DNA of 64,000 nt from Alphaproteobacteria bacterium (GCA_964291415.2 OZ219918.1:256001-320000), one strand, 5' to 3'. Numbered from the stretch's first letter, positions 3,821-36,266 are shown. Notes: generated from the letters alone by a model not told the origin. Program-made: numbers and translations.

Positions 3821-4708
3821 CTAGTCGCCGAACCGGAACACCGCCGACATGGCGCAATGGTCGGGATGCGGATCGCGCCGTGGCTCTTCGCGGAAGGATC
3901 CCGGCGCCAGCATCGCCTGCGCGCCGCCTCCGGCCACCATGTGATCAATGAACGCCGGAAAGCGTGGATCGCAGCGGAACGGCACGTCCTTCGTCAACAG
4001 CAGCAGAGGCGCCGAGGCTGGCGAGAGCAGCCGCCACGCCCAGTCGTCGGCGAGCGTCAGGCGGCGGTTGAAATCTCCCAGGATGACGAAGGGCTGAGCC
4101 TGGGCCCGGCGGGTGTCGGCCCACGCCTTCAACTCCTCGATCTGGCCGCGCAGCGTCGCGCAGGTTTCCGCGCTCCCGCTGTCGCCGTCCTGACCGGCGC
4201 CCCAGCACCCGGTCTTGAGATGGACCGAGAGCAGGCGCAGTTCCCGGTCTTGCGACGTCACGACGATGTCGGTCGCCCATCGCTGGAACGCGTCGCCGGC
4301 GCCCAGCGTTGTCAGGTCTCCGTTGCGACGGTATTGGACGCCGTGCCTGATCGCGAACCCCGTCGCCAGGTGTCCGAGCCGTGCCTGAGGTCTGTCCCAG
4401 CAGGCCGGGCCGTTCTCCGCCGGCGGACGCCGCGACACTTCGACCTGCCAGTCGGATGCCGGAAACACCCGGTGCGCCGCTGCCACATTTTCCACCTCCT
4501 GGAAGGCGACGATATCGGCGTCCAGTTCGGCGACCCGCCCGGCGAGGACCGCGTAGTCGGCAGCGCTGCGCCCGACGCAGCCGGCGCCGTCGCTGTCGTC
4601 CAGGTGTTCCAGGTTCCAGGCCGCAATGCGCAGTTCATCGCCCGATCCCGATTGCGGCGCGAACGCCAGGACCAGGCACGCCAACACCCCCCATCCGGCA
4701 ACACGCAT
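3821..4708 (-). CDS. secreted endonuclease/exonuclease/phosphatase (EEP) family protein
   Basis: signal peptide; AWNLEHL, AFQEVE, SVHLK, ILGDFN, IDH and PDHC motifs. Confidence 0.88.
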   Translation of the reverse strand: MRVAGWGVLACLVLAFAPQSGSGDELRIAAWNLEHLDDSDGAGCVGRSAADYAVLAGRVAELDADIVAFQEVENVAAAHRVFPASDWQVEVSRRPPAENGPACWDRPQARLGHLATGFAIRHGVQYRRNGDLTTLGAGDAFQRWATDIVVTSQDRELRLLSVHLKTGCWGAGQDGDSGSAETCATLRGQIEELKAWADTRRAQAQPFVILGDFNRRLTLADDWAWRLLSPASAPLLLLTKDVPFRCDPRFPAFIDHMVAGGGAQAMLAPGSFREEPRRDPHPDHCAMSAVFRFGD

Positions 4709-4760
4709 CGTCGTCTCCTTCGCCTTCCGGTCCGCAACGCCGTTCCTGCAGGACGGGCCG

Positions 4761-6293
4761 CTATCGGAGGAGGGCGCGTTCCTCCGTCCTCTGCCATGCC
4801 TCGCGATAGCTGCGCTGGTAGGTGTGGAAGGGATCGCTGGTGACGGCGTAGTCCCACACCGGCGGGCGGCCGTGCCTGTTGGCCTCGAAGATCGTCGTGC
4901 GCCGCCGGACGCTCTCTTCCACGAGGCCCGGCAGGTCGGCCACGTCCCACTGCCTCAGGATCTCCTGATGCAGGTCCTCCCGTGTCGCGGCATGGGCGGC
5001 ATCCTGCGCCAGGTCGCGACGCTCTTCGGGGTCCCTGGCGAGATCGAACAGCAGGGGGGCCGTCGTCTCGCAGTGAACGAACTTGTGGCGGCCGCGCCTG
5101 ATCATGAACCACGGTGCCGGCACGCCCTCGCCGCAGTACTCCGCGAGCACATCGCGCGGGGCGCCCGCGTCGTTTCCGCGCAGAACGTGCGCGAGGCTCC
5201 TGCCGTCGACCGGACCTGCGATGCTGCCGGTCTCCTCGTCGCCGGCAAGCTCCGCCAGCGTCGGGAGCATGTCGACGAGCGAGACGGGAGTCCGCACCCG
5301 TTTCGCAGCAAAGGCAGCGGGACAGTGGAACACGAGAGGCACCCGTTCTGCCCACTCGAAGAAGGTGCGCAACCCCCAGAGGCCGCGCTCTCCCAGCATG
5401 TTGCCGTGGTCGGCGGTGATGATGACGACGGTGTCGCTATCGAGGCGTGAGGCCTCGAGCGCGCCGAGGATCTGGCCGATCCTGTCGTCGATGTGACTGA
5501 GCATCGCGTAGTAGGCGTGACGTGCCCGGCGCACATGATCGTCGGTCACGCCGGCCTGCCCCATGCCGCCGTACTCGTGGAGATAGCGACTCAGTTCGTC
5601 ATGATCATCGACCGGGATCGGCGCGACCGCCGGCATGGGGATGTTCCCGTCGTCGTAACGATTCCAGTACTCGGCCGGCGAGGCGAAGGGAGGGTGGGGC
5701 TGGATGAACGAGACGGTCATCAGGAAGGGCCGGTCGGCCTCCTCGCGGGCCAGCTGGTAGATCCTGTTGACGGAGGTGAAGGTCACCTCGTCGTCAAAGT
5801 CGATTCCCAGGCAGCGCACGCAGGGGCCCGCCTCGATCACTTCGTCGAGATTCGGATAGTCGGGAAATCCCTCGTCCTCCCAGCGCGCGCCTCCGGGTGG
5901 CGGGCCCCAGCCGAAATCCGACGGCACCACGTCGGTCGTCAAGCGCTCCTCGAAGCCGTGCAGCTGATCGGGGCCCACGAAGTGCATCTTTCCGGAAAGA
6001 ATGGTCTGGTAGCCCGCCAGGCGCAGGTGGTGGGCAAAGGTGGGAACACTCGCCGGAAGCTCGCTGCCGTTGTCGTAAACACCGACCTTCGAGGGCAGGA
6101 GCCCTGTCAGGAACGAAGCGCGGGACGGTCCGCACAGGGGAGCGTTGCAGTACGCATTCTCGAAGACGATGCCCTCCTCGCCGAGCCGCTTCATGTGGGG
6201 CGCCCTGATCGTGCCGTCGCCGTACATGGGCAGCGCCAGGGCGCTCATGAAGTCGGCCATGATGATCACGATGTTGGGTTGGTTCCTGGTCAT
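4761..6293 (-). CDS. betC: choline-sulfatase-like sulfatase
   Basis: PNIVIIMAD, CNAPLCGPSR formylglycine motif, GKMHFVGPDQLHGFEERLTTD and C-terminal WDY typical of choline-sulfatase. Confidence 0.78.
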   Translation of the reverse strand: MTRNQPNIVIIMADFMSALALPMYGDGTIRAPHMKRLGEEGIVFENAYCNAPLCGPSRASFLTGLLPSKVGVYDNGSELPASVPTFAHHLRLAGYQTILSGKMHFVGPDQLHGFEERLTTDVVPSDFGWGPPPGGARWEDEGFPDYPNLDEVIEAGPCVRCLGIDFDDEVTFTSVNRIYQLAREEADRPFLMTVSFIQPHPPFASPAEYWNRYDDGNIPMPAVAPIPVDDHDELSRYLHEYGGMGQAGVTDDHVRRARHAYYAMLSHIDDRIGQILGALEASRLDSDTVVIITADHGNMLGERGLWGLRTFFEWAERVPLVFHCPAAFAAKRVRTPVSLVDMLPTLAELAGDEETGSIAGPVDGRSLAHVLRGNDAGAPRDVLAEYCGEGVPAPWFMIRRGRHKFVHCETTAPLLFDLARDPEERRDLAQDAAHAATREDLHQEILRQWDVADLPGLVEESVRRRTTIFEANRHGRPPVWDYAVTSDPFHTYQRSYREAWQRTEERALLR

Positions 6294-6478: not shown

Positions 6479-7186
6479 TCAACCCCCTTCTCCTGTTGGA
6501 TGAAGACTCTCCAACCGGTTGAGCCAGTCGGAAAAGTGAGGGCATTGCGTGCACATGCGCTGCAGGCCGATTTCCAGTGCGGCGAGAATACCCAGAAGTG
6601 GTTTCTCATATCCGTCAATCAGAGCCATGATCCGCTTCGACGGCGCTCCTTCCGGCGACTCATCGATCTCTTCCGGCGTCGGGAAGGTGTTCCTGATGTC
6701 CTGCAACCGCGGAGTCAGGTCCGGCCGCTCGATTCCAGTGCCGAACCTTTCGCAGTCGCTGAACAGCAGCGCCTCGTACTCGTGCATCATCACATACGGA
6801 ACGAATCGGCGCGTGTCGAAGCCGCCGCCCATTTCTCCGGCGATGTCTGCCAACAGGGCGTCCTGAATCGACGAGGCTCTGTCGGCAAAGGGACGCTGTG
6901 ACGCTTCCGCACGTCCCGGCCACGCTCCACCACCGCTCTGCGGAAGGCCGTAGTAATCCACCATCGTGGTGACGATGCGGTCCTGATCCTCGTGGAGATG
7001 GCGCACGATGTCCCGTCGCGCAGAGGGCCAGCCTCTGATGCCCCCTCGGTGGTCGCGCTGGCGCGCGTTTCCCATCAACCGCGCCCCGACCAACGAAAAG
7101 CCGCGGTCATAGAGGTGCGGCGCGAGAACCTCGTTGACGAAACTCTCTTCAGTCTGACCTTCGACGTGGACGAGGAGACGTGTCAT
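6479..7186 (-). CDS. DUF4276 family (TOPRIM-like) protein
   Basis: LLVHVEGQTEE, TTMVDYY, HEYEALLFSD, PEEID..PSKR, CPHFSDW; 4-bp overlap with upstream ATPase. Confidence 0.82.
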   Translation of the reverse strand: MTRLLVHVEGQTEESFVNEVLAPHLYDRGFSLVGARLMGNARQRDHRGGIRGWPSARRDIVRHLHEDQDRIVTTMVDYYGLPQSGGGAWPGRAEASQRPFADRASSIQDALLADIAGEMGGGFDTRRFVPYVMMHEYEALLFSDCERFGTGIERPDLTPRLQDIRNTFPTPEEIDESPEGAPSKRIMALIDGYEKPLLGILAALEIGLQRMCTQCPHFSDWLNRLESLHPTGEGG

Positions 7187-8220
7187 GCCTCGGGGGTGGG
7201 ACGCCCACCGAATTCATTCTTCTCCCAAAGTTGCCCGAGGCTGTACTCGTTCAGCCAGTCCCTCAGCCTCTCCGGTTCCAGCCTCGTCAGCTTGGTCGCC
7301 CCGTCCTCCCGATCAGCCACAAGCACGTCTTCCGGGTCGAAGTGATCGAGCAACAAGGGCGACTGTGTGGCGAGAATGACCTGAGTCTCTACGGATGCTT
7401 GTTTGACGAGCGATGCCAGAAGCGTGACTGCGTAGGGGTGCAAGCCGAGTTCCGGTTCGTCCATGAGGATGACGGACGGGCGGAGCGTCGCGGGCAGGAA
7501 CAGCAGCGTCGCGAGGGCGATGAATCTCAAGGTTCCGTCAGAAAGGGACGACGCGTCGAAATAGGCGTCCGACTTCCGATGCCGCCATTCAAGACGGATG
7601 GTGTCTTCATTCAACGCCAAGGGTTCCAGTTCAAAATCGTCGAAGAACGGTGCAGCGAGCCGCACCGTGCGTCGGATCATGCGGTACGCATCGGGGTGCT
7701 TTTGGCGCAGGCGATACAGAACGGCGGCGACGTTCGATCCATCCGCCTTCAGGTGGCGGTTGTCGTTCAGATCGGTCGTTTTCTTCATCGGAGACAACGG
7801 GCCGGTATCCTGAAAATGGTAGCAACGGAACTGACGGACTACGGCGAGTAGAGTCTTGGGAAAACTCCAGTTCTGGTCCCCCACAACAGGAAGCCTTCGT
7901 GCAACAAGCCTGTCGCCTGCAACTGCAATCAACTCTTGTCTGTACACCCTATGTATCTCATTGAATTTTATTTCGAAACTGATTCTCTCTGTGTTCTTGG
8001 CTCCAAAGTGCAGGATCTTGTCCGCTCCACCCGAGCGTACGACATGGTCGTCCACTTCACTGTCGTCACGAAGGGTGGTGCGCAACAGCGCCATGGCGCC
8101 GAAGACATTCGATTTGCCCGATCCGTTGGGTCCGATCAGCACGTTGATCCGGCCGAGACGCAATTCGAGACACCTGATGCTCTTGAAGCCTTCGATGGTG
8201 ATTCGGTCGAGCGCGGGCAT
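7183..8220 (-). CDS. AAA_21-type / ABC-like ATPase
   Basis: Walker A GPNGSGKS, signature LSDGTLR, Walker B ILMDEPELGLHP, ATQSP switch, YSLGQLWEKN tail. Confidence 0.9.
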   Translation of the reverse strand: MPALDRITIEGFKSIRCLELRLGRINVLIGPNGSGKSNVFGAMALLRTTLRDDSEVDDHVVRSGGADKILHFGAKNTERISFEIKFNEIHRVYRQELIAVAGDRLVARRLPVVGDQNWSFPKTLLAVVRQFRCYHFQDTGPLSPMKKTTDLNDNRHLKADGSNVAAVLYRLRQKHPDAYRMIRRTVRLAAPFFDDFELEPLALNEDTIRLEWRHRKSDAYFDASSLSDGTLRFIALATLLFLPATLRPSVILMDEPELGLHPYAVTLLASLVKQASVETQVILATQSPLLLDHFDPEDVLVADREDGATKLTRLEPERLRDWLNEYSLGQLWEKNEFGGRPTPEA

Positions 8221-28151: not shown

Positions 28152-29188
28152 CTACTTCATGACGTTCGTCCACACCTGGTCGTAGAGCCTCACGACATCG
28201 TCTTCGCAGGCAGGCACGAACTCGGGATCCGGCGTTCCTTCCGGAGCGTTGAGTTCCGGCGCCGTGGCGAGTTCGGGATCGAAGTATTGCGCCGCGCCCA
28301 TGATGCCCCCGTTCACCCCGACATAGTTCGATTCAAGGGCGATGTTCTCCGGCACCATCATGAAGTCCATGAAGATCATGGCATTCTCGATGTTCTCGGC
28401 GCCCCTGGGCACGGCCAGGTTGTCCATCCACCCGGTATAGCCCTCCCGGGGATGCGCAAACGCCACTGACGGCTTTTCAGCGCGTGTGCGGATGGCGTAT
28501 CCGTCCCAGTTCATCGTCGCATCGACCTCACCCGAGACGATCAGTTCCTTCGGGTCCATGGAGTAGGAGCGCACCCATTCCTTTTGCCGCAGAAGCAGTT
28601 CCTGAACCTGGCGCATTTCGTCCGGATTTGAGTTGCAGCGCGGGAACCCGAGATAGCGCAAGGCCATGTTGATGACCTCCACGGAGTCCTGGAACATGTT
28701 GATGCGGCCCTTGAGCACGTCCGGTGGATCGAAGAGGACGGCCAGCGTGTGGATGTCGCCGTCAAAGACGTCCGTGTTCACGTTGAAGCTTGTGGTGCCC
28801 CACATCCAGGGAATGGAGTAGTGGCGGCCTGGATCCCAGTAGACATCGACCCAGCGTGGCTCGACGTTCTTGAAGTTGGGGAGTTCGTTGGGCTCGACAC
28901 GCAGAAGCAGATCCTCCTTGATCAGGATCTCGACGAGATAGTCGCCCGGCACGATGATGTCATAGCCGGTCGCTCCGGCCATCATCTTGGCGAGCAGGTC
29001 TTCGTTGCTTGCGAACGTATCGATGTTGACCGTGATCCCGGTCTCGGCTTCGAACTTCTCGATGAGCTCGGGACTGGTGTAGTCCGCCCATGTGTAGAAG
29101 TTGACCTCTCCCTCGGCGCTGGCCCGGGGACGCCGAGCGAGGCGACCAGCAAGATGGCCCCCGTCACGCCAAGCAATTGTCTCAACAT
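28152..29188 (-). CDS. potD: polyamine ABC transporter substrate-binding protein, frameshift near 29125
   Basis: signal peptide MLRQLLG..; frame change in CCCCGGG gives ASAEGEVNFYTWADYTSPELIEKFEAETGI; GYDIIVPGDY, PWMWGTT, WMDNLAVP. Confidence 0.82.
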
Positions 29189-29299
29189 GATTGACCTCCC
29201 TTTGAATACGATTTGGATACAGACTGTAACCTTAACCCGGTCCGGGAGAAAGGCCAGTCGGGACAGTTTGACCTTTCAACGCGCAAGGCCCCGGGAACG

Positions 29300-29594
29300 A
29301 TGGTTTCGGCCGGGCTGGCCCTTGCGCCGAAGTCCGAGCCGGACAAGCCCCCTCGAAAGGGTCAGGCCGCCTTCGTTCTGGATTCTTTCGAGGTCGAGGA
29401 CGAATGGTTCGCGCTCGAGTTGGTCGCCTTCCAGGTGTTGTCCGGCGAAGGACCGCCTTCCGCGATCGCCGCGGAAGCAATCGAGACGATCAGGCGCTTG
29501 CGACTCAATGATGAGGAATGCTGTGGTGCGTGCGCCGAATACGCCGAGGATTACTGGCGCGAGGAAATCACAATCGCCGATGTGCGAAAAAATG
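29300..29594 (+). pseudogene. gene remnant interrupted by the tnpB element (continues 30932-30974)
   Basis: VLDSFEVEDEWFALELVAFQV...IRRLRLND...YAEDYW..EITIADVRKN continues as AP..VAR after the element is removed; resembles C-termini of HNH-type proteins (recalled, unverified). Confidence 0.5.
29587..29594. repeat. 8-bp target-site duplication, left copy (AAAAAATG)
   Basis: identical octamer at 30924-30931 flanking the element. Confidence 0.85.
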
Positions 29595-29626
29595 GGGGAT
29601 TGTATACGCAACTTGACAGAATCGAC

Positions 29627-29655
29627 TTGACATCCAATGGTGTTATCGATATGAA
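29627..29655 (+). promoter_or_regulatory. candidate sigma70 promoter for tnpB
   Basis: TTGACA-17 nt-TATGAA, ~40 nt upstream of the ATG at 29697. Confidence 0.4.
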
Positions 29656-29696
29656 TTCGTGTGGTAAATCAGTGCTCGCAATACCGGAGTCCCCGC

Positions 29697-30896
29697 ATGT
29701 CGTCCTCTGTCACCTATCGACAGATCACCTTTCGCCTGCTGCCCGAGAAGCGCAGCACCTGGCGGCGGCTGGAGGCCATGCTCGACACGCAGCGCTGTCT
29801 CTACAACGCGGCGCTGGAAGAACGGATCGACTGCTACCGCAAGACCGGCAAGTCGCTCACCTACTTCGATCAGGCGAAGTCCCTGACCCTTTGCCGCAAG
29901 GCGCTGCCGGACATGGCAGCGGTGCCGGTGGCCATTCAGCGCGGGACGCTCAAGCGCCTCGATCATGCCTTCAAGGGCTTCTTCCAGCGGGTGAAGCAGG
30001 GTGGGGCCGGGTTCCCCCGGTTCCAGGGACGCCGGCACTTCAACAGCCTTTCCGTGGTCTCCGGCGTCAGGGTCGAGGGCAGTCGCCTGCGCATCCCCGG
30101 CCTGGGCTGGCTGACCATCCGCCGCCGGGGCGGCAATCCCTGGCCGCAGGGCACGCCGGTGAGTGCGGTCCTCAAGCGCGAGGAGGGACGCTGGAAGGCT
30201 GTGGTGTGCCATGCGGTGTCGCTGCCGGAAGGGGACGACAACGGCCATGCCGTCGGCGTGGACATGAATGCGGGCCAGGTGGCGACCTCGGACGGGGAGA
30301 TCCTGCGCCTGGAGAGGAGCCGTCGTCTCGAGGCCCGTGCCCGGCGCTACGCCAAGCAGCTGGCGCGGCAGCGCCGTGGCAGCAGGCGGCGGGAGAAGAC
30401 GCGGCGGCGTCTGGCGAAGACCACCCGGCACATGGCCATGAAGCGCCATGACTGGCAGCACCACGTCAGCCGCCGGTTGGCGGATGCGGCGGGAACGGTG
30501 GTGGTCGAGGATCTCAAGGTCCGCACCATGACCCGCAGCGCCAGGGGCACGAAGGAGGAGCCGGGACGTCACGTGCGCTCCAAGGCGGGTCTCAACCGTG
30601 TCATCCTGGAGACGGGCTGGTCGTCGTTCCGGAGAATGCTGGACTACAAGGTTCACCGCGTCATCGCGGTGAACCCGGCCTACAGCAGCCAGACCTGTGC
30701 AGCGTGCGGCGTCACGAGCGCCCAATCACGCAGGACGCGGGACCTGTTTCAATGCGTGGCGTGCGGCCATGCGGATCACGCCGACCTCAATGCAGCGGCG
30801 AACATTCTGGCCTCGGGGACTGAGGCATCTGCGCGGGGAGGTTGCCGGGTTGCCGGGCCTGTGAACCGCGAAATCGATCAGAGGATGGCAGCATGA
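29697..30896 (+). CDS. tnpB: RNA-guided endonuclease TnpB
   Basis: CLYNAAL, GFPRF, RuvC-I VGVDMN, RuvC-II VVVEDL, Zn finger SSQTCAAC...CVACG, RuvC-III HADLNAAANI; D-E-D triad intact. Confidence 0.95.
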   Translation: MSSSVTYRQITFRLLPEKRSTWRRLEAMLDTQRCLYNAALEERIDCYRKTGKSLTYFDQAKSLTLCRKALPDMAAVPVAIQRGTLKRLDHAFKGFFQRVKQGGAGFPRFQGRRHFNSLSVVSGVRVEGSRLRIPGLGWLTIRRRGGNPWPQGTPVSAVLKREEGRWKAVVCHAVSLPEGDDNGHAVGVDMNAGQVATSDGEILRLERSRRLEARARRYAKQLARQRRGSRRREKTRRRLAKTTRHMAMKRHDWQHHVSRRLADAAGTVVVEDLKVRTMTRSARGTKEEPGRHVRSKAGLNRVILETGWSSFRRMLDYKVHRVIAVNPAYSSQTCAACGVTSAQSRRTRDLFQCVACGHADHADLNAAANILASGTEASARGGCRVAGPVNREIDQRMAA

Positions 30897-30943
30897 CGCT
30901 GTCAACTTCTCGATATAAGTCCCAAAAAATGCTCCTTCGTTGC
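30790..30943 (+). ncRNA. predicted omegaRNA (scaffold over tnpB 3' end and right TIR, guide from flank)
   Basis: hairpins gcctcgg-gga-ctgaggc and tggcagc-atgac-gctgtca at the tnpB 3' end; position inferred from known TnpB biology; 5' end unknown. Confidence 0.5.
30924..30931. repeat. 8-bp target-site duplication, right copy (AAAAAATG)
   Basis: identical to 29587-29594. Confidence 0.85.
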
Positions 30944-31149
30944 GAGGAAACCGGACGTTCCAGGACGGCCCTAAGCCTCTTGATCACTGGCGATTTCCCT
31001 AGGCGTTTTGTCACAAACGCGAAGTGAGGATAGAGAACAGATGTCCGCTTTCTTGAAACACTCTCGGAAGAAATAGCTGCCGTCCGCATCGAAAGCTTCG
31101 GTGAGCGATCCGGGTTGGAGGCCACAACTCAAGCCGCGTGTCAGCGGTG

Positions 31150-31989
31150 TCAGCGGAACATCAAGGAGCCGCTGCGTTGTTCGATGGCGTCGGAGACGAC
31201 GATGCCACCGCGAAAACGGTCATATGTAGTATCCAGATAGTGGTACTGGAGCGCTTTCAACTGGCCGCCATAGCGCTGCCGAAGGCCTCCTGCGGCGGGC
31301 TGTACGTGAACATTGCTCACGTGGCCTGTGCAGTAGGCGTGGCAGGCAACGGGATAGAGCAGCGCGGAGCACAGGATATCGCAGACTTGGAGGCCGGCGT
31401 GGTTGTCGCTGTGGCCGAAGGTTGGAAGTTCGACGGTCCGAGGGTACGCCCGGGCAGTTTGGCTGAACTTCTGGGTGAAGATCGAGTGGGACACCTTGAC
31501 GTTCTTGAACTTGTTGCGGCTGTCGGCGATGCATGCGCCGACCTCGTTCACGTGGGACAGATAGTGGTCGAAGTAGGTGCAGATGCCTTGGATCGAAGCC
31601 GTGTAAACGGACGTGGGAACGAAGGGCATTCCGATGCCCTTCACGCTGATGCGCGCGACCAACCGAACGTCGTGGCGCCACAGCATTCCGAAAATGCGGT
31701 CCAGGAATCCGACTGCGTGACGTCGCTGACGAGCGTTGCCGCGTAACGCGTTGTTCCGGATATCCGCCCCCTTGATCTCCGGCAGGATCCTGTCAAGGAA
31801 TCTGGCCGATGGGTACGGCAAGTTGGGGAAGTACCGATACTTCAGGTCGAGGAAATCAGCGGTAAAGGCGAGGAGGTTTGCGGCTTCCGCGAAGAGTCCA
31901 CCGACGACCAGGACGGGTTGGTCGTTAGGCTGCGGCGGGTCGGACAGCGGTCCGAGGTCTCCCGCTTCGTCGATAAAGCAGATTCTCAT
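31150..31989 (-). CDS. DUF3800 domain-containing protein
   Basis: N-terminal CFIDEAG, EIKG, IADSR, C-terminal HSDNHAGLQVCD (QxxD) pattern; start MRIC at 31989. Confidence 0.8.
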   Translation of the reverse strand: MRICFIDEAGDLGPLSDPPQPNDQPVLVVGGLFAEAANLLAFTADFLDLKYRYFPNLPYPSARFLDRILPEIKGADIRNNALRGNARQRRHAVGFLDRIFGMLWRHDVRLVARISVKGIGMPFVPTSVYTASIQGICTYFDHYLSHVNEVGACIADSRNKFKNVKVSHSIFTQKFSQTARAYPRTVELPTFGHSDNHAGLQVCDILCSALLYPVACHAYCTGHVSNVHVQPAAGGLRQRYGGQLKALQYHYLDTTYDRFRGGIVVSDAIEQRSGSLMFR

Positions 31990-32005
31990 TCGGTGCCAAA
32001 AGTGG

Positions 32006-32058
32006 CTATGGCCACCGGATGGTGGCCATAGGGTCTGCCGCCCACGACGGGGTCGGCA
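32006..32058 (-). ncRNA. structured 5' leader (two hairpins) of the DUF3800 gene
   Basis: perfect 11-bp stem ctatggccacc-ggat-ggtggccatag (32006-32031) and tgccg-ccc..ggg.-cggca (32036-32058). Confidence 0.5.
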
Positions 32059-32077
32059 ACAAAGAAGTTCTGTTAGC

Positions 32078-32106
32078 AATATGGGAAATTGAGGCTCGCG
32101 TGTCAA
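32078..32106 (-). promoter_or_regulatory. candidate sigma70 promoter for DUF3800 leader/gene
   Basis: minus strand TTGACA-17 nt-CATATT. Confidence 0.45.
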
Positions 32107-32241
32107 CGGTGCCGGATCTCTTGGTATCATGGGGAGCGCTCTGACGATCGAATGAGTTGGGAATTCCTCCTGCCACCCCGGGCTCAGCCGCGGATACCAT
32201 CGAACACTGCGACAACCCAGCCGCTACTTTCCCTGGCAGCG

Positions 32242-32390
32242 TCACCGGGTCGGGCGCGAGAGCGGCGCGGCGGTCGCGGCGTCCAGCGCCACGACGCTCA
32301 CCGTGCAGGTCTCGACCAGTGCCTCGAGGTCGGCCCTGGCCCGTTGCTCGTCGCGGTAGACCCGGGCGTTGGCGAGCGTCGGCGAGGCCC
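32242..32390 (-). pseudogene. fragment of a GAF/PAS sensor-regulator gene
   Basis: ANARVYRDEQRARADLEALVETCTVSVVALDA resembles a GAF-to-PAS linker; no start codon or full domain. Confidence 0.45.
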
Positions 32391-32407
32391 GCGCCCGGGA
32401 ATCCGAC

Positions 32408-32878
32408 TTAACGAACGTAGATGCCCACGCCGAAGAGGTGGCCGTCGTGGAGCACCATCCAGCTCGACTTGTGCTCGACCTCTCCGGTGACCGGGTCCTT
32501 CCACTTGTAGTCGACCCAGGTTCCATCCGGCGATGCCGTCTGCCGCATCTCCTCGCCGAAGCGCTTGCCGTCGACATCGGTGTAGCTCTCCAGTGTTCTC
32601 CCCACCAACGATGAGTCGATGCTATGGACCAACTTCGTGCTGTCAGGTCCAAAGACGAAGACATAGAGGTCGCGATCCAGGAACTCCGGCGCCGGGTCGG
32701 TGTTGAACCTGGCAAAGGCTGCATCGGCCCCTACCTCGTCATAGTAGGCGATGGCACGCGCCACCATGTCCTGGGCTTCCTCGGCCGTGCCCCGGTCGTC
32801 GCTGCCCATGGCGGGTGCCGCGCACACCACAAGCAGCGCGGCAGCAAGGCTGCGCAGGTGACGGGTTGTAGTCCTCAT
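32408..32878 (-). CDS. stand-alone periplasmic single Cache domain protein
   Basis: signal peptide; GTAEEAQDMV.RA, DLYVFV, DVDGK.F, WVDYKWKDPVTG..EHKSS, GVGIY. Confidence 0.88.
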   Translation of the reverse strand: MRTTTRHLRSLAAALLVVCAAPAMGSDDRGTAEEAQDMVARAIAYYDEVGADAAFARFNTDPAPEFLDRDLYVFVFGPDSTKLVHSIDSSLVGRTLESYTDVDGKRFGEEMRQTASPDGTWVDYKWKDPVTGEVEHKSSWMVLHDGHLFGVGIYVR

Positions 32879-33225
32879 GTCGTGTTCTCTCCTTCGCACT
32901 CCGTGCGCGAATCGACGGCGCGACATCTTGAAGATTTGCAGGGTCAACGTCGGTCAAGCTTCCGACGCCGCAATGATGCCGTCAATCCTTCCGGCGCCTT
33001 CGTCAAAGCTCGCTACCGGCTTGCGCTCTTCATGAGCGTCCTTGAACACGTCGATGTCGACGTCAGCTTCACAACTCACTGTTGCGAAAGGCAAATGGAT
33101 CGTTTCCGCGGTGCTTTTCGCGCGCTCGGAAATGATCTGGTCCGTGGTACGTCCTTCAGTCCGGATCATCCAGGGGACACAAGCCGGTCGTCAGGTCCGC
33201 GACATTGCCGCGTCTGGCCCGCGTG

Positions 33226-34029
33226 TCAGGCCGTCTCCTTCTTGCGCAGAAGGATTGCCATGCTGACGAAGACGATCGAGACGCCGAGCAGCATGGACGA
33301 CACGGCGTTGACCTCGGGCGTCACGCCCATGCGGACCTGGCTGTAGATGTAGACGGGCAGCGTCGTGGCGCCGGCGCTCGCGACCATCTGCGTGATGATG
33401 AAATCGTCGAGCGAGATGACGAAGGCCAGGGCTGCGCCGGCGACGATCCCGGGCATCAGCATCGGCAGCGTGACATGGCGGAACGTCTGCACGGGATCCG
33501 CGTAGAGATCGGCGGCAGCCTGCTCCAGGGTGGTGTCCATGCCGTGAAGTCGGGCCCTGATGGGCAGGTAGGCGAACGGCACGCAGAAGACCGTGTGGGC
33601 GATCATGACATTGCCGACGCCAAGCTCCAGTCCGATCAGGCTGAGAAACGAAAGCAGGGCCACGGCGGTGACGATCTCGGGCACCATGAGCGGTGAATTG
33701 ATGACGGCGTAGCAGGCAGTCAGGCCACGGAACCGCTGCACCCTCGTTGTCGCCAGTGCCGCCGCCGTCGCCAGGATCGTTGCGGCAATGGTTGCGACCG
33801 TTGCGACGAGGAACGAATTCGTCGCGGCTTGCCGGATCGCGTCATTGGCGAGAGCCTTGGCATACCAGTCCAGGCTGAACTCGCTCCAGTTCGAGACGGA
33901 GCGCCGTTCGTTGAACGAAAAGAACACCAGAACGAACAAGGGAAGATAGAGAAGACCCAGACAGACCGCAGCCATGAACCCGAATCCCGGATAACGCTTC
34001 AGATCGTAGGGTCGGGAACCGGCCATCAT
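33226..34029 (-). CDS. potC: polyamine ABC transporter permease
   Basis: LYLPLFVLVFFSFN, PLMVPEIV, EQAAADLYA, SLDDF, TPEVNA. Confidence 0.88.
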   Translation of the reverse strand: MMAGSRPYDLKRYPGFGFMAAVCLGLLYLPLFVLVFFSFNERRSVSNWSEFSLDWYAKALANDAIRQAATNSFLVATVATIAATILATAAALATTRVQRFRGLTACYAVINSPLMVPEIVTAVALLSFLSLIGLELGVGNVMIAHTVFCVPFAYLPIRARLHGMDTTLEQAAADLYADPVQTFRHVTLPMLMPGIVAGAALAFVISLDDFIITQMVASAGATTLPVYIYSQVRMGVTPEVNAVSSMLLGVSIVFVSMAILLRKKETA

Positions 34030-34030
34030 G

Positions 34031-34972
34031 TCAGACCGCATCCTGGTCCCGGCGGGCGGCCTGCCGGGCGTAGATCATCAGGGCGATCAGCACGAGGGAA
34101 AGGAGGATCATCGCCGCTGCCGACCCGAAGGGCCAGTTGCGTGCGGTCCCGAACTGCTGCGCGATCAGATTGCCGATCATCAGGTGCTTGCCGCCACCGA
34201 GCAGGTCAGGCGCCAGAAACGAGCTCAGTGACGGGATGAAGACCAGGAAACAGCCGCCGGCGATTCCCGGGAGCGAGAGCGGGATCAGAATGCGCTGCAA
34301 CACTCTCCAGCGATTGGCGTAGAGGTCATAGGCCGCCTCCACGAGCCGGAAATCAATCCGTTCCAGGCTGGCGTAGACCGGCAGCACCATGAAGGGAAGG
34401 AAGCTGTAGAGCAGGCCAAGACCGATCGCGAAATCGGTGTACAGCAACGAGAGCGGCTGCTCGATGATGCCGATGCCCATGAGGATGGAGTTGAGCGGGC
34501 CCTGATCCCGCAGAATCAGCATCATCGAAAACGTTCTCACCAGAAGATTGGTCCAGAAGGGAACCGTCACCAGAAAGATCAGGATGTTGCGCAACCCGGG
34601 TGGACGCGTCGCGATGAAGTAGGCCGTCGGGAACCCGATCAAAAGGCAGCCAACGACCGCCAGGCCCGCAAGAATGACGGAGCGGGCGCCGATCTGGAGG
34701 TAGGAGGAACTGAACGCCAGCGTTCCATCGAAGATGTCGCGTTCGAACAGGAACTGGATGTAGGCATCAAGGGAGAATTCCCAGACCACGCCGCCGTAGG
34801 TGCCGGGAACCAGAAAGGAGTAGACCAGGATCAAGCCGAGCGGAGCGAGTCCGAAGGCGCCAATGAGAGCAAATGCCGGCGAGAGCAGGATCAGGCTGCG
34901 CCGCGCCGTCGGGAGACCGCTGAAGCGGTCGATCCACGTCGCCCGGTTCGCCGCATCGTGCTGTTCAGCCAT
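34031..34972 (-). CDS. potB: polyamine ABC transporter permease
   Basis: VPFWTNLLVR, LPFMVLPVY, EAAYDLYA, RNWPFGSA. Confidence 0.88.
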   Translation of the reverse strand: MAEQHDAANRATWIDRFSGLPTARRSLILLSPAFALIGAFGLAPLGLILVYSFLVPGTYGGVVWEFSLDAYIQFLFERDIFDGTLAFSSSYLQIGARSVILAGLAVVGCLLIGFPTAYFIATRPPGLRNILIFLVTVPFWTNLLVRTFSMMLILRDQGPLNSILMGIGIIEQPLSLLYTDFAIGLGLLYSFLPFMVLPVYASLERIDFRLVEAAYDLYANRWRVLQRILIPLSLPGIAGGCFLVFIPSLSSFLAPDLLGGGKHLMIGNLIAQQFGTARNWPFGSAAAMILLSLVLIALMIYARQAARRDQDAV

Positions 34973-34978
34973 GGGAAC

Positions 34979-36100
34979 TCAGCCGGCGAGGATCCGGGCT
35001 GCGCCCGGTGCCATGAGAACCCGTACGCTGCTTCCCACCGACATGCCGCTGCCCCGGTCAGCGACATTCTGCTCGTAGACGAGCAGTTCCGGTCCGTTTT
35101 CCAGCGTGACGCGGTAGCTTGTATCGGTTCCCCGATAGAGGCAGTCCGTGATCCGGCCGGCGAGTCCGGGTCCGGGATCGGCAGACAGCACGATCCGTTC
35201 CGGTCTGAGCGACAGCGTGACCCGACATCCCGCCGCCTTGTCGCCGACCGGCTGCGCGAGGACCTCGGCGCCCCCTTCGAGACGACAGCGGACCATGTCG
35301 CGTTCAGCGGCGCCGATGACGGCCGGCAACAGGTTGGTTTCGCCCATGAAGTTGGCGACGAAGGGGTTGGCGGGGTGTTCGTAGATCACATCGGGCGTGC
35401 CCACCTGCTGGATCCGGCCGGCCCGGAGCACGGCGATCCTGTCGCTCATGGTGAGCGCTTCCTCCTGATCGTGCGTCACGAAGATGAAGGTGATTCCGGT
35501 CTCGCGCTGCAGGGTCTTGAGCTCGACGCGCATCTCCTGGCGGAGCTTGAGATCGAGCGCCGAGAGAGGTTCGTCGAGGAGCAGGACCCGGGGATGGTTC
35601 GCCAGTGCCCTGGCGAGCGCAACGCGCTGTTGTTGTCCGCCGGAAAGCTGGCTTGACTTGCGTTCCCCGAGATCGGGCATCTTGACGAGGGTCAGCATGC
35701 TTTCGACCGTGCGCCTGATTTCGGCCTTGTCGCGGCGCAGCATGCGCAGTCCGAACGCCACGTTCTCCGCTACGGTCATGTGCGGAAACAGCGCGTAGTG
35801 CTGAAACACCGTGTTGATCGGCCTCTTGTAGGGAGGAAGACGCGCCACATCGTTGCCGAACAGCAGAATGTCGCCCCGCGTGACCTGTTCGAACCCCGCA
35901 ATCAGACGAAGAAGCGTTGTCTTGCCACACCCCGATGGGCCGAGCAGGGTAAAGAACTCGTTGTCCCGGATGGCAAGCGAGACCTCGTCAAGGGCCGTGA
36001 CGGACTCTGCGGAACCCGCCTGGAAGACCTTTGTCACGGAACGAAGTTCGATGGCCGTGCCGACCGCCTCAGGTGGTGTCTGACTCAAGGCTGCATTCAT
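34979..36100 (-). CDS. potA: polyamine ABC transporter ATP-binding protein
   Basis: GPSGCGKT, NTVFQHYALFPH, LSGGQQQR, LLLDEPLSALD, TOBE tail. Confidence 0.9.
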   Translation of the reverse strand: MNAALSQTPPEAVGTAIELRSVTKVFQAGSAESVTALDEVSLAIRDNEFFTLLGPSGCGKTTLLRLIAGFEQVTRGDILLFGNDVARLPPYKRPINTVFQHYALFPHMTVAENVAFGLRMLRRDKAEIRRTVESMLTLVKMPDLGERKSSQLSGGQQQRVALARALANHPRVLLLDEPLSALDLKLRQEMRVELKTLQRETGITFIFVTHDQEEALTMSDRIAVLRAGRIQQVGTPDVIYEHPANPFVANFMGETNLLPAVIGAAERDMVRCRLEGGAEVLAQPVGDKAAGCRVTLSLRPERIVLSADPGPGLAGRITDCLYRGTDTSYRVTLENGPELLVYEQNVADRGSGMSVGSSVRVLMAPGAARILAG

Positions 36101-36266
36101 CCTGAATGCGGCTGCCTCACGCTCACCCTGGCGGCACGTCGACACCGGCCTGCCAGTGGCCGGTGTGACTCGTGGACCACAACGTCATCCGCACAGACCT
36201 TCCGCGTGTGTCCCTTCAGCTGGCCTGCATGGTGCCGGACTTCGTCATGGAATCCCAATCTTCCCG

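Follow-up and report, generated by a model that had tools for sequence, protein, structure and literature searches.

A 64,000-nucleotide stretch of DNA from an Alphaproteobacteria bacterium (GCA_964291415.2 OZ219918.1:256001-320000; "the window" below, with positions counted from its first letter) carries a mobile element whose only gene is tnpB. It is bounded by terminal inverted repeats (TIRs) that match imperfectly, and by a target-site duplication (TSD) of 8 bp. We read it, with moderate confidence, as a non-autonomous insertion sequence (IS) that encodes an ISDra2-like TnpB, whose right TIR is dual-coded as the 3′ part of a guide RNA (omegaRNA) scaffold, whose guide would begin with the TSD, and whose target would be marked by a single G as target-adjacent motif (TAM). 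The accepted role of TnpB is to cut the empty, scarless site and thereby have the element copied back into it. This role was worked out for IS605 and IS607, which leave no duplication, and TnpB action in elements that do make a TSD has been discussed mainly for the eukaryotic Fanzors. The clade described here would offer a compact bacterial case with a concrete rule: a G ahead of the duplicated 8-mer identifies the target, the C at the TIR end identifies self, and the left junction, with its 8 matching bases, offers too short a match for cleavage. With G as the entire TAM, if that is so, these nucleases of 399 amino acids (aa) would have an unusually permissive targeting range. The 25 bases that would be used both as transposase site and as RNA scaffold would also make overlapping constraints traceable across a family.

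A tnpB element with inverted repeats and an 8-bp duplication

The element, its ends and its gene are laid out as follows.

29595-30923: tnpB-only element, 1,329 bp, with imperfect TIRs and an 8-bp TSD; tnpB is the only gene
29587-29594, plus strand: left TSD copy, AAAAAATG; TSDs vary between insertions
30924-30931, plus strand: right TSD copy, AAAAAATG; predicted guide start (seed, first 8 nt); similarity between copies of the element ends at 30923
29595-29619, plus strand: left TIR, GGGGATTGTATACGCAACTTGACAG; 17 of 25 positions agree with the reverse complement of 30899-30923
30899-30923, plus strand: right TIR, CTGTCAACTTCTCGATATAAGTCCC; clade consensus ..TATAA(G/T)TCCC
29697-30896, plus strand: tnpB, 399 aa, with Pfam domains OrfB_IS605 (PF01385) and Cas12f1-like_TNB (PF07282)

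The stop codon of tnpB lies 27 nt from the element end. In a single copy the TIR is weak (a repeat search did not place it among the 25 longest inverted repeats of the window), and the window holds no second copy of the element. The observation goes beyond chance because relatives show conserved ends, variable TSDs and covariation. These relatives come from a protein search, which gave 2,302 homologues at E ≤ 0.001 among 8,000 scored candidates, and from a scan of one genome per species, which gave 450 confirmed relatives; 80 loci at 43-93% identity were kept, all from metagenome-assembled genomes (MAGs) labelled Alphaproteobacteria, Paracoccaceae, Thalassobaculaceae, Boseongicola, Silicimonas, Rhodobacter or Rhodothermales. 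Right ends were placed by a covariance model (see below) and a duplicated 8-mer was then sought upstream. This yielded 36 insertions in which at least 7 of the 8 TSD bases match, 30 of them perfect, and no flanks were shared among the 27 insertions examined for this. Left ends across the clade are of the type GGG(G)AWTTATAT (W, A or T). The similarity between close copies reaches precisely to ...GTCCC at the right end and to GGGG... at the left, and the flanking 8-mers are duplicated and locus-specific.

At 1273-1533 bp, the 36 elements with both ends mapped are too short to accommodate a transposase as well. Copy numbers of 6-7 occur in several genomes (one chromosome record has 6 loci, for example), and a tblastn search of the PLSDB plasmids at E 1e-40 gave no match. 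The clade is one of TIR and 8-bp-TSD elements with tnpB as the only gene. Because it keeps the same end type at 43-97% identity, the tie between TnpB and these ends is old and does not reflect a recent deletion derivative.

The protein itself scores 206 bits against the NCBIfam model guided_TnpB (cutoff 100) and stays below cutoff for the IS-specific models (IS200_TnpB, 160 bits vs 425; IS607_TnpB, 95 vs 350). ISDra2 TnpB (8h1j, 8bf8) aligns to residues 8-374 with E ~4e-32, and the protein also aligns to the catalytic motifs of an ISDra2-like chain. In an alignment of 29 relatives, D189 of the RuvC triad is invariant, E271 and D363 are nearly so, and the zinc-finger cysteines C334/C337/C353/C356 are conserved; the reading frame and catalytic residues are retained across the whole range of identity. 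The TnpB is ISDra2-like and, by these residues, predicted to be catalytically intact.

A conserved fold at the 3′ end of tnpB

The last part of tnpB and the right TIR together form the predicted scaffold.

30809-30923, plus strand: predicted omegaRNA scaffold, 115 nt; overlaps the last 88 nt of tnpB and stops at the element end
30810-30826, plus strand: hairpin 1; stem 30810-30814 / 30822-30826, loop GGGGACT 30815-30821
30832-30870, plus strand: hairpin 2; outer stem 30832-30836 / 30866-30870, inner stem 30845-30848 / 30853-30856
30873-30914, plus strand: hairpin 3; stems 30873-30876 / 30911-30914, 30880-30884 / 30906-30910 and 30886-30892 / 30898-30904, with the tnpB stop codon in the loop

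A first reading of the window, made from its sequence without comparison to relatives (the sequence-only reading), had pointed to three stems here. All three are present at the places given. The first two are GCCTCGG (30810-30816) with CTGAGGC (30820-30826), and TGGCAGC (30886-30892) with GCTGTCA (30898-30904), the latter with the stop TGA (30894-30896) in its loop ATGAC. The hairpins also continue into the right TIR, as that reading had it. The third stem, ATCGA (30873-30877) with TCGAT (30910-30914), occurs in the window but is not conserved as such; what is conserved is hairpin 3, whose sequence varies. Folded on their own, the 116 nt at this place in the window give three hairpins and the tail AUAAGUCCC at -49.6 kcal/mol, with a z of only -2.2.

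The sequence-only reading had also named a covariance model of the 3′ end as a check. The model (R1), built from 49 sequences, finds 30809-30923 in the window with 111.5 bits (E 7e-31) and nothing else significant there, and it matches the 3′ end of tnpB in 73 of the 80 loci with 73-125 bits. In the remaining 7, a contig end interrupts the locus or tnpB is truncated. Weak matches of 12-26 bits sit on left ends and are caused by the TIR. Two further strong ones, near the main element and in opposite orientation, mark further copies or remnants (L044 2132-2248, minus strand, 86 bits; L050 1033-1164, minus strand, 61 bits).

The 3′ regions were aligned in rounds of 31, 49 and 76 sequences, the last with 72 distinct. 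Across these 72, 92.7% of the cells of the whole structure are paired; sliding the partner column leaves no more than 50.1%. The covariation score is 0.249, that of shuffled alignments is 0.112, and 0 of 500 shuffles reach the observed value. The nested part of this alignment was fitted to the model, which favours that part, and the pseudoknot columns discussed below lie outside it; alignments made by sequence alone give the same picture of the structure. Hairpin 1 has 98.1% of its cells paired, with pair types such as GC:48/CG:22 and GC:60/AU:5, and its covariation is limited to the inner 5 bp (30810-30814 / 30822-30826). In hairpin 2 the outer stem is 98.9% paired (AU:62/GC:10) and the inner stem 99.3% (CG:38/GC:18/UA:15 and GC:42/CG:29). 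Hairpins 1 and 2 are thus strongly supported by covariation. G-U pairs are common (UG:59 and GU:38, for example), as expected for an RNA of the tnpB strand. When sequences are folded individually, each subfamily has a hairpin at the place of hairpin 3. For 29 of 49 elements, exactly 9 nt separate the last pair of this hairpin from the element end; 9 is also the median (range 1-19), and the median z is -2.2. L004 shows a compensatory change in hairpin 3.

These hairpins could instead be features of the DNA or the protein, such as transposase sites, codons for the TnpB C-terminus or a terminator, with no functional omegaRNA and with tnpB as a decaying passenger. Hairpins 1 and 2 do lie in coding sequence, the TIR imposes constraints on the terminal TCCC and on hairpin 3's 3′ arm, and an Rfam search of 29300-31300 at E ≤ 10 returned only noise (at most 14.9 bits) and no matching family. 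Yet the compensatory changes alter codons while keeping the pairs, as in the inner stem of hairpin 2, and the frequent G-U pairs mean that pairing holds on this strand only. The frame and catalytic residues of tnpB are kept at 43-97% identity in elements present in several copies per genome, and the architecture and length match the solved ISDra2 omegaRNA. We give this explanation very little credence.

The right end as predicted scaffold and the proposed start of the guide

If the fold is that of an omegaRNA, the next question is where the scaffold would stop and the guide begin. The relevant positions are these.

30918-30923, plus strand: AGTCCC, the final 6 nt of the TIR; would be the 3′ strand of a proposed pseudoknot whose other strand is GGGACT at 30816-30821 in the hairpin-1 loop
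30924-30943, plus strand: predicted guide region, starting AAAAAATGCTCC...; its length is assumed to be ~16-20 nt

The right TIR falls into two stretches: its inner portion is the 3′ arm of hairpin 3, and the remainder is the 9-nt tail. In an unbiased helix scan, UCCC of the tail was found complementary to GGGA of the hairpin-1 loop, and the two strands of this putative pseudoknot lie at -6..-1 and -108..-103 from the element end. Three of its pairs hardly vary. The case for it is conserved complementarity and not covariation, and on that footing AGTCCC at the end of the element is a probable pairing partner for the hairpin-1 loop. In 49 elements, hairpin 1 begins 105-119 nt before the element end, and in the window the distance is 114 nt. 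The ISDra2 complex has a 116-nt scaffold whose pseudoknot joins -6..-2 with -102..-106 and leaves one base before the guide (PMC10097598). This match in geometry is the main argument for placing the boundary between scaffold and guide at the element end, within 1-3 nt; with the boundary there, the TSD would supply the first bases of the guide, under the same uncertainty of 1-3 nt. The sequence-only reading had proposed both things. Its view that the right TIR doubles as the 3′ part of an omegaRNA-like scaffold is supported computationally, and its TSD-first guide agrees with the best-fitting boundary.

A different layout would place the 3′ copy of the TSD in the scaffold or a linker, start the guide at 30932, and make the 5′ copy of the TSD together with the preceding G the TAM. 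A review states such an arrangement for the solved structures of Fanzor1 and Fanzor2, and the composition bias of the TSD described in the next section (W at positions 2 and 7, never G at 1) could be read by a protein. The 8 bases differ between insertions, however, which rules them out as conserved scaffold. The candidate pseudoknot would then sit 8 nt further from the guide (-116..-111) than that of ISDra2 (-106..-102). Moreover, if the TAM were read only directly before the guide, the right junction would present a TAM with a full target and would be cut, which could be avoided only through the difference of G and C 9 nt upstream. We judge this layout improbable.

A separate observation concerns the hairpin-1 loop. 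The 15 nt of 5′ untranslated region (UTR) just ahead of tnpB (29681-29695, ACCGGAGTCCCCG) include GGAG as a likely ribosome-binding site and are 80% complementary to 30814-30828, the region of this loop. They contain AGTCCCC, which mimics the AGTCCC at the element end, so that the ribosome-binding site could be an alternative partner of the hairpin-1 loop; the UTR match is weaker in close relatives.

Target-site bias and an invariant G

The sequence-only reading had assumed a transposase with little target preference, and had suggested that a TAM might be relaxed or absent. Neither the first assumption nor an absent TAM agrees with the insertions. The A+T content of the TSD in the 30 perfect insertions is 75%, that of the flanks 39%, with W at TSD position 2 in 30/30 and at position 7 in 29/30, and G never occurs at position 1. 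The same 8-mer was also found at unrelated sites (AATTGAAT twice in one genome, L015/L020; ATGAATTC in two MAGs, L041/L062), which points to a narrow set of preferred targets. Targeting of terminators was considered as a source of the A-rich TSDs and rejected: folding of the flanks gave a mean z of -0.35 on the right and -0.31 on the left, with no general hairpin.

Comparison of the 5′ flanks of multiple insertions, which the sequence-only reading had also named as a check, brought out a conserved base directly before the TSD.

29586, plus strand: G directly before the left TSD copy; may be a minimal TAM (or reflect an asymmetric requirement on the target)

Position -1 is G in 30 of 30 perfect-TSD insertions (binomial p 1.4e-15) and in 35 of the 36 with at least 7 of 8 bases matching. 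The mirror position +1 is C in only 7/30 (Fisher 1.7e-10), and A occurs at -2 in only 2/30. Since G at -1 is invariant without a mirror C, the requirement is orientation-specific, and the G lies on the 5′ side of the target that a TSD-first guide would match. At the occupied right junction, position -1 is always the last C of the TIR. The left junction has the G with only 8 matching bases, as the sequence-only reading had stated; the guide 16-mer has no other match in the window. A rule of G plus TSD and flank would separate self (a C, or a match of 8 bp) from the empty site, and the G is a plausible minimal TAM, or the core of a very short one.

The RNA and the dual coding might also be as described while the G and the A/T-rich 8-mer reflect target choice by a transposase; the TAM of TnpB would then be another or a relaxed one, or TnpB would not act on the empty site. 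DDE transposases commonly have a target-site consensus, and positions 2/7 (W/W) and 1/8 (not G / mostly not C) are roughly mirror-symmetric. The two readings may even both hold, given that in IS200/IS605 the TAM is the transposase target (PMC13565253). Against target choice by a transposase, G at -1 in every perfect insertion with so few mirror Cs is unexpected from a symmetric dimer, and the side on which the G stands is the 5′ side of the guide-matching target. We think this account unlikely, if one to be taken seriously.

Proposed mechanism and points against it

In our preferred reading, the last 115 nt of the element would encode the scaffold (hairpins 1, 2 and 3 and the 9-nt tail), and read-through out of the element would add a guide starting within 1-3 nt at the right TSD copy. 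The complex of TnpB and RNA would recognise the empty site, that is, one TSD copy followed by the right flank, with the G before the target serving as the core of a short TAM. Neither occupied junction would be cut: the right one has C at -1, and the left one has the G but a match of 8 bp. An element-free allele, whether it lost the element or never had it, would be cut and then repaired from the occupied copy, which would amount to homing. The first insertion at a site would be the work of a transposase acting in trans.

Several points weigh against this reading. First, the RNA and its ends are predictions. Both the sequence and the length of hairpin 3 vary, and only 61-82% of its cells are paired in the family alignments (61-66% in those made by sequence alone). 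The pseudoknot columns are 89.3% paired in the 72 distinct sequences and still 83.5% paired when slid by -1 (G and C runs); covariation in the pseudoknot alone gives no signal (the score is 0.102, the shuffled value 0.100, and 153 of 500 shuffles reach the former); and its fifth pair (CG:38, UA:3, UG:2) is unpaired, mostly U.U, in 28 of 71 cells. Second, the G may equally be an asymmetric requirement of the mobilising transposase. The sole exception to it, L047, has C at -1 and a degenerate left end. A one-base TAM would also be unusually short, known TnpB TAMs being 4-5 nt, such as TTGAT (PMC10097598). Third, the layout of the solved Fanzors, with the 3′ TSD in the scaffold and the 5′ TSD as part of the TAM, is a different one, at least as the review reports it. 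Fourth, no partner transposase or second element type with the same ends was found in the window and ~480 kb of flanks.

A bolder version starts from the invariant, orientation-specific G and sees TnpB as more than a passenger carried along by a cut-and-paste element. It takes the single G as the whole TAM, the shortest for the family, and the TSD as the seed, and has TnpB and its omegaRNA take part in the choice or fixation of the site, in holding the ends, or in regulation. We consider this quite unlikely, and equally so its corollary that each insertion would create a TAM and an 8-nt-seed binding site at its own left junction. In a more extreme form, this clade of TIR/TSD elements would need no separate transposase.

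Comparison with known systems

On the reading that we prefer, the closest relative in mechanism would be ISDra2 (PDB 8h1j, 8bf8/8exa). Homology to its TnpB extends over the full length, the predicted ~115-nt scaffold likewise overlaps the 3′ end of tnpB and stops where the element ends on the right, the bases just ahead of the guide would form a candidate pseudoknot with a site ~105 nt upstream, and the guide would come from DNA beyond the right end. The differences from ISDra2 are the TIRs and the 8-bp TSD, and the lack of a TTGAT-type motif: only G (not A at -2) precedes the target. A further difference, from ISDra2 and from IS200/IS605 elements at large, is that no Y1 TnpA is encoded in the element or found among the 87 open reading frames (ORFs) of at least 230 aa in the window, a cut-off above the length that a Y1 TnpA would have. 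By the definition given in PMC13565253, IS200/IS605 and IS607 elements have no TIRs and no TSDs; IS200/IS605 inserts 3′ of a fixed 4-5-nt motif, and IS607 carries a serine-recombinase TnpA. Judged by its TIRs and TSD, the element is outside both families.

Prokaryotic TnpB transposons associated with DDE transposases are nearer in their ends. They end in inverted repeats, at most 250 bp separate the 3′ end of TnpB from an end of the transposon, and the DDE transposase gene lies inside the element or no more than 1 kb away; solo TnpBs with the same ends, thought to be mobilised in trans, have been described as well (Altae-Tran et al. 2023, PMC10691335). The inverted repeats are shared here, and the 27 nt from stop to end fall within the 250-bp definition. 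Their DDE-5 branch has a conserved motif 8 bp upstream of the end (PMC10691335), which looks like the geometry of G before TSD in the present clade. On the other hand, no DDE gene lies within any of the 36 elements and no transposase gene recurs in the flanks of the 80 loci. The TSD differs too: elements of ISL2, IS630 and IS1031 make 2-3-bp TSDs, and here it is 8 bp. These three are the transposase families of the DDE-associated branches (PMC13565253).

Fanzor guide RNAs overlap the TIR (PMC10530073), as the predicted guide RNA does here at the right TIR, and in both cases the TSD and the TAM, here a candidate one, are linked to the insertion site. It differs in being bacterial, in its ISDra2-sized protein and short scaffold, in a TSD that by geometry would lie in the guide, and in a candidate TAM placed before the TSD. 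Miniature inverted-repeat transposable elements (MITEs) and solo-tnpB elements of the IS1341 type are alike in having ends and a TSD without a transposase gene and in reaching several copies per genome; the difference is that here a full-length conserved gene is kept with the same ends across the clade. The particular features of the clade are an ISDra2-like TnpB, an 8-bp TSD that is probably the seed, a TIR with second roles in the predicted scaffold as hairpin arm and putative pseudoknot strand, and a single invariant G. The literature covered described neither a bacterial family with TnpB as its sole gene and an 8-bp TSD nor a G ahead of such a TSD; the additional files of PMC10691335, outside that scope, may bear on the point.

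Search for a mobilising transposase

The TIRs and 8-bp TSD, unlike anything in IS200/IS605 or IS607, suggest that the element is presumably moved in trans by a transposase, most likely of the DDE type. IS1595 (ISNwi1 group) and ISL3 are candidate families, which we take to have 8-bp TSDs and similar ends. By Pfam, none of the 87 window ORFs of at least 230 aa is a transposase, and no transposase gene recurs among 662 clustered ORFs from the flanks of the 80 loci. The only cluster of flank ORFs that spans 5 loci is a group II intron reverse transcriptase. This reverse transcriptase/maturase stands beside the elements in L061, L068, L069 (874-2211, minus strand), L073 and L074 (4657-5979), and L061, L068 and L069 have the same upstream flank.

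A search for further TIR-like ends in the window and the 80 loci gave three candidates. In L058 (4246-6153), the candidate proved to be an ISNCY-family IS (4221-6126) with its own, different inverted repeats, inserted into hairpin 3 at the right end; its 481-aa transposase has no Pfam match and scores 409 bits with NCBIfam NF033593. In L033 (~3930-5760), it is an IscB element (RRXRR and HNH domains, 532 aa) inserted into tnpB. Both were rejected as partners. The L033 locus is a case of one OMEGA element inside another. In L045, at 3834-4357, another sequence resembling a left end (GGGAATTATATCG) lies 213 bp beyond the element's right end and is followed to the contig end by A/T-richer DNA without tnpB; 9 nt upstream of it stands a base other than G. 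This may be a different element type with the same ends.

Surroundings of the element

Inside the left end, at 29627-29655, TTGACA and TATGAA separated by a 17-nt spacer can be seen by eye, and close relatives have TTGACA-N17-CATGAT; a promoter and terminator scan of 29300-31300 returned 0 of each, and the candidate was not accepted. At 28155-36145, the element and a DUF3800 gene (31153-32130, minus strand) split an apparent minus-strand ATP-binding cassette (ABC) transporter operon into a solute-binding-protein gene (28155-28985) and the permease and ATPase genes (33229-36145). The interruption of this operon implies that ~4 kb may be inserted DNA. Elsewhere in the window, at 6482-8220, a DUF4276 protein adjoins an AAA_21/AAA_15 ATPase, a gene pair of the defence-island type.

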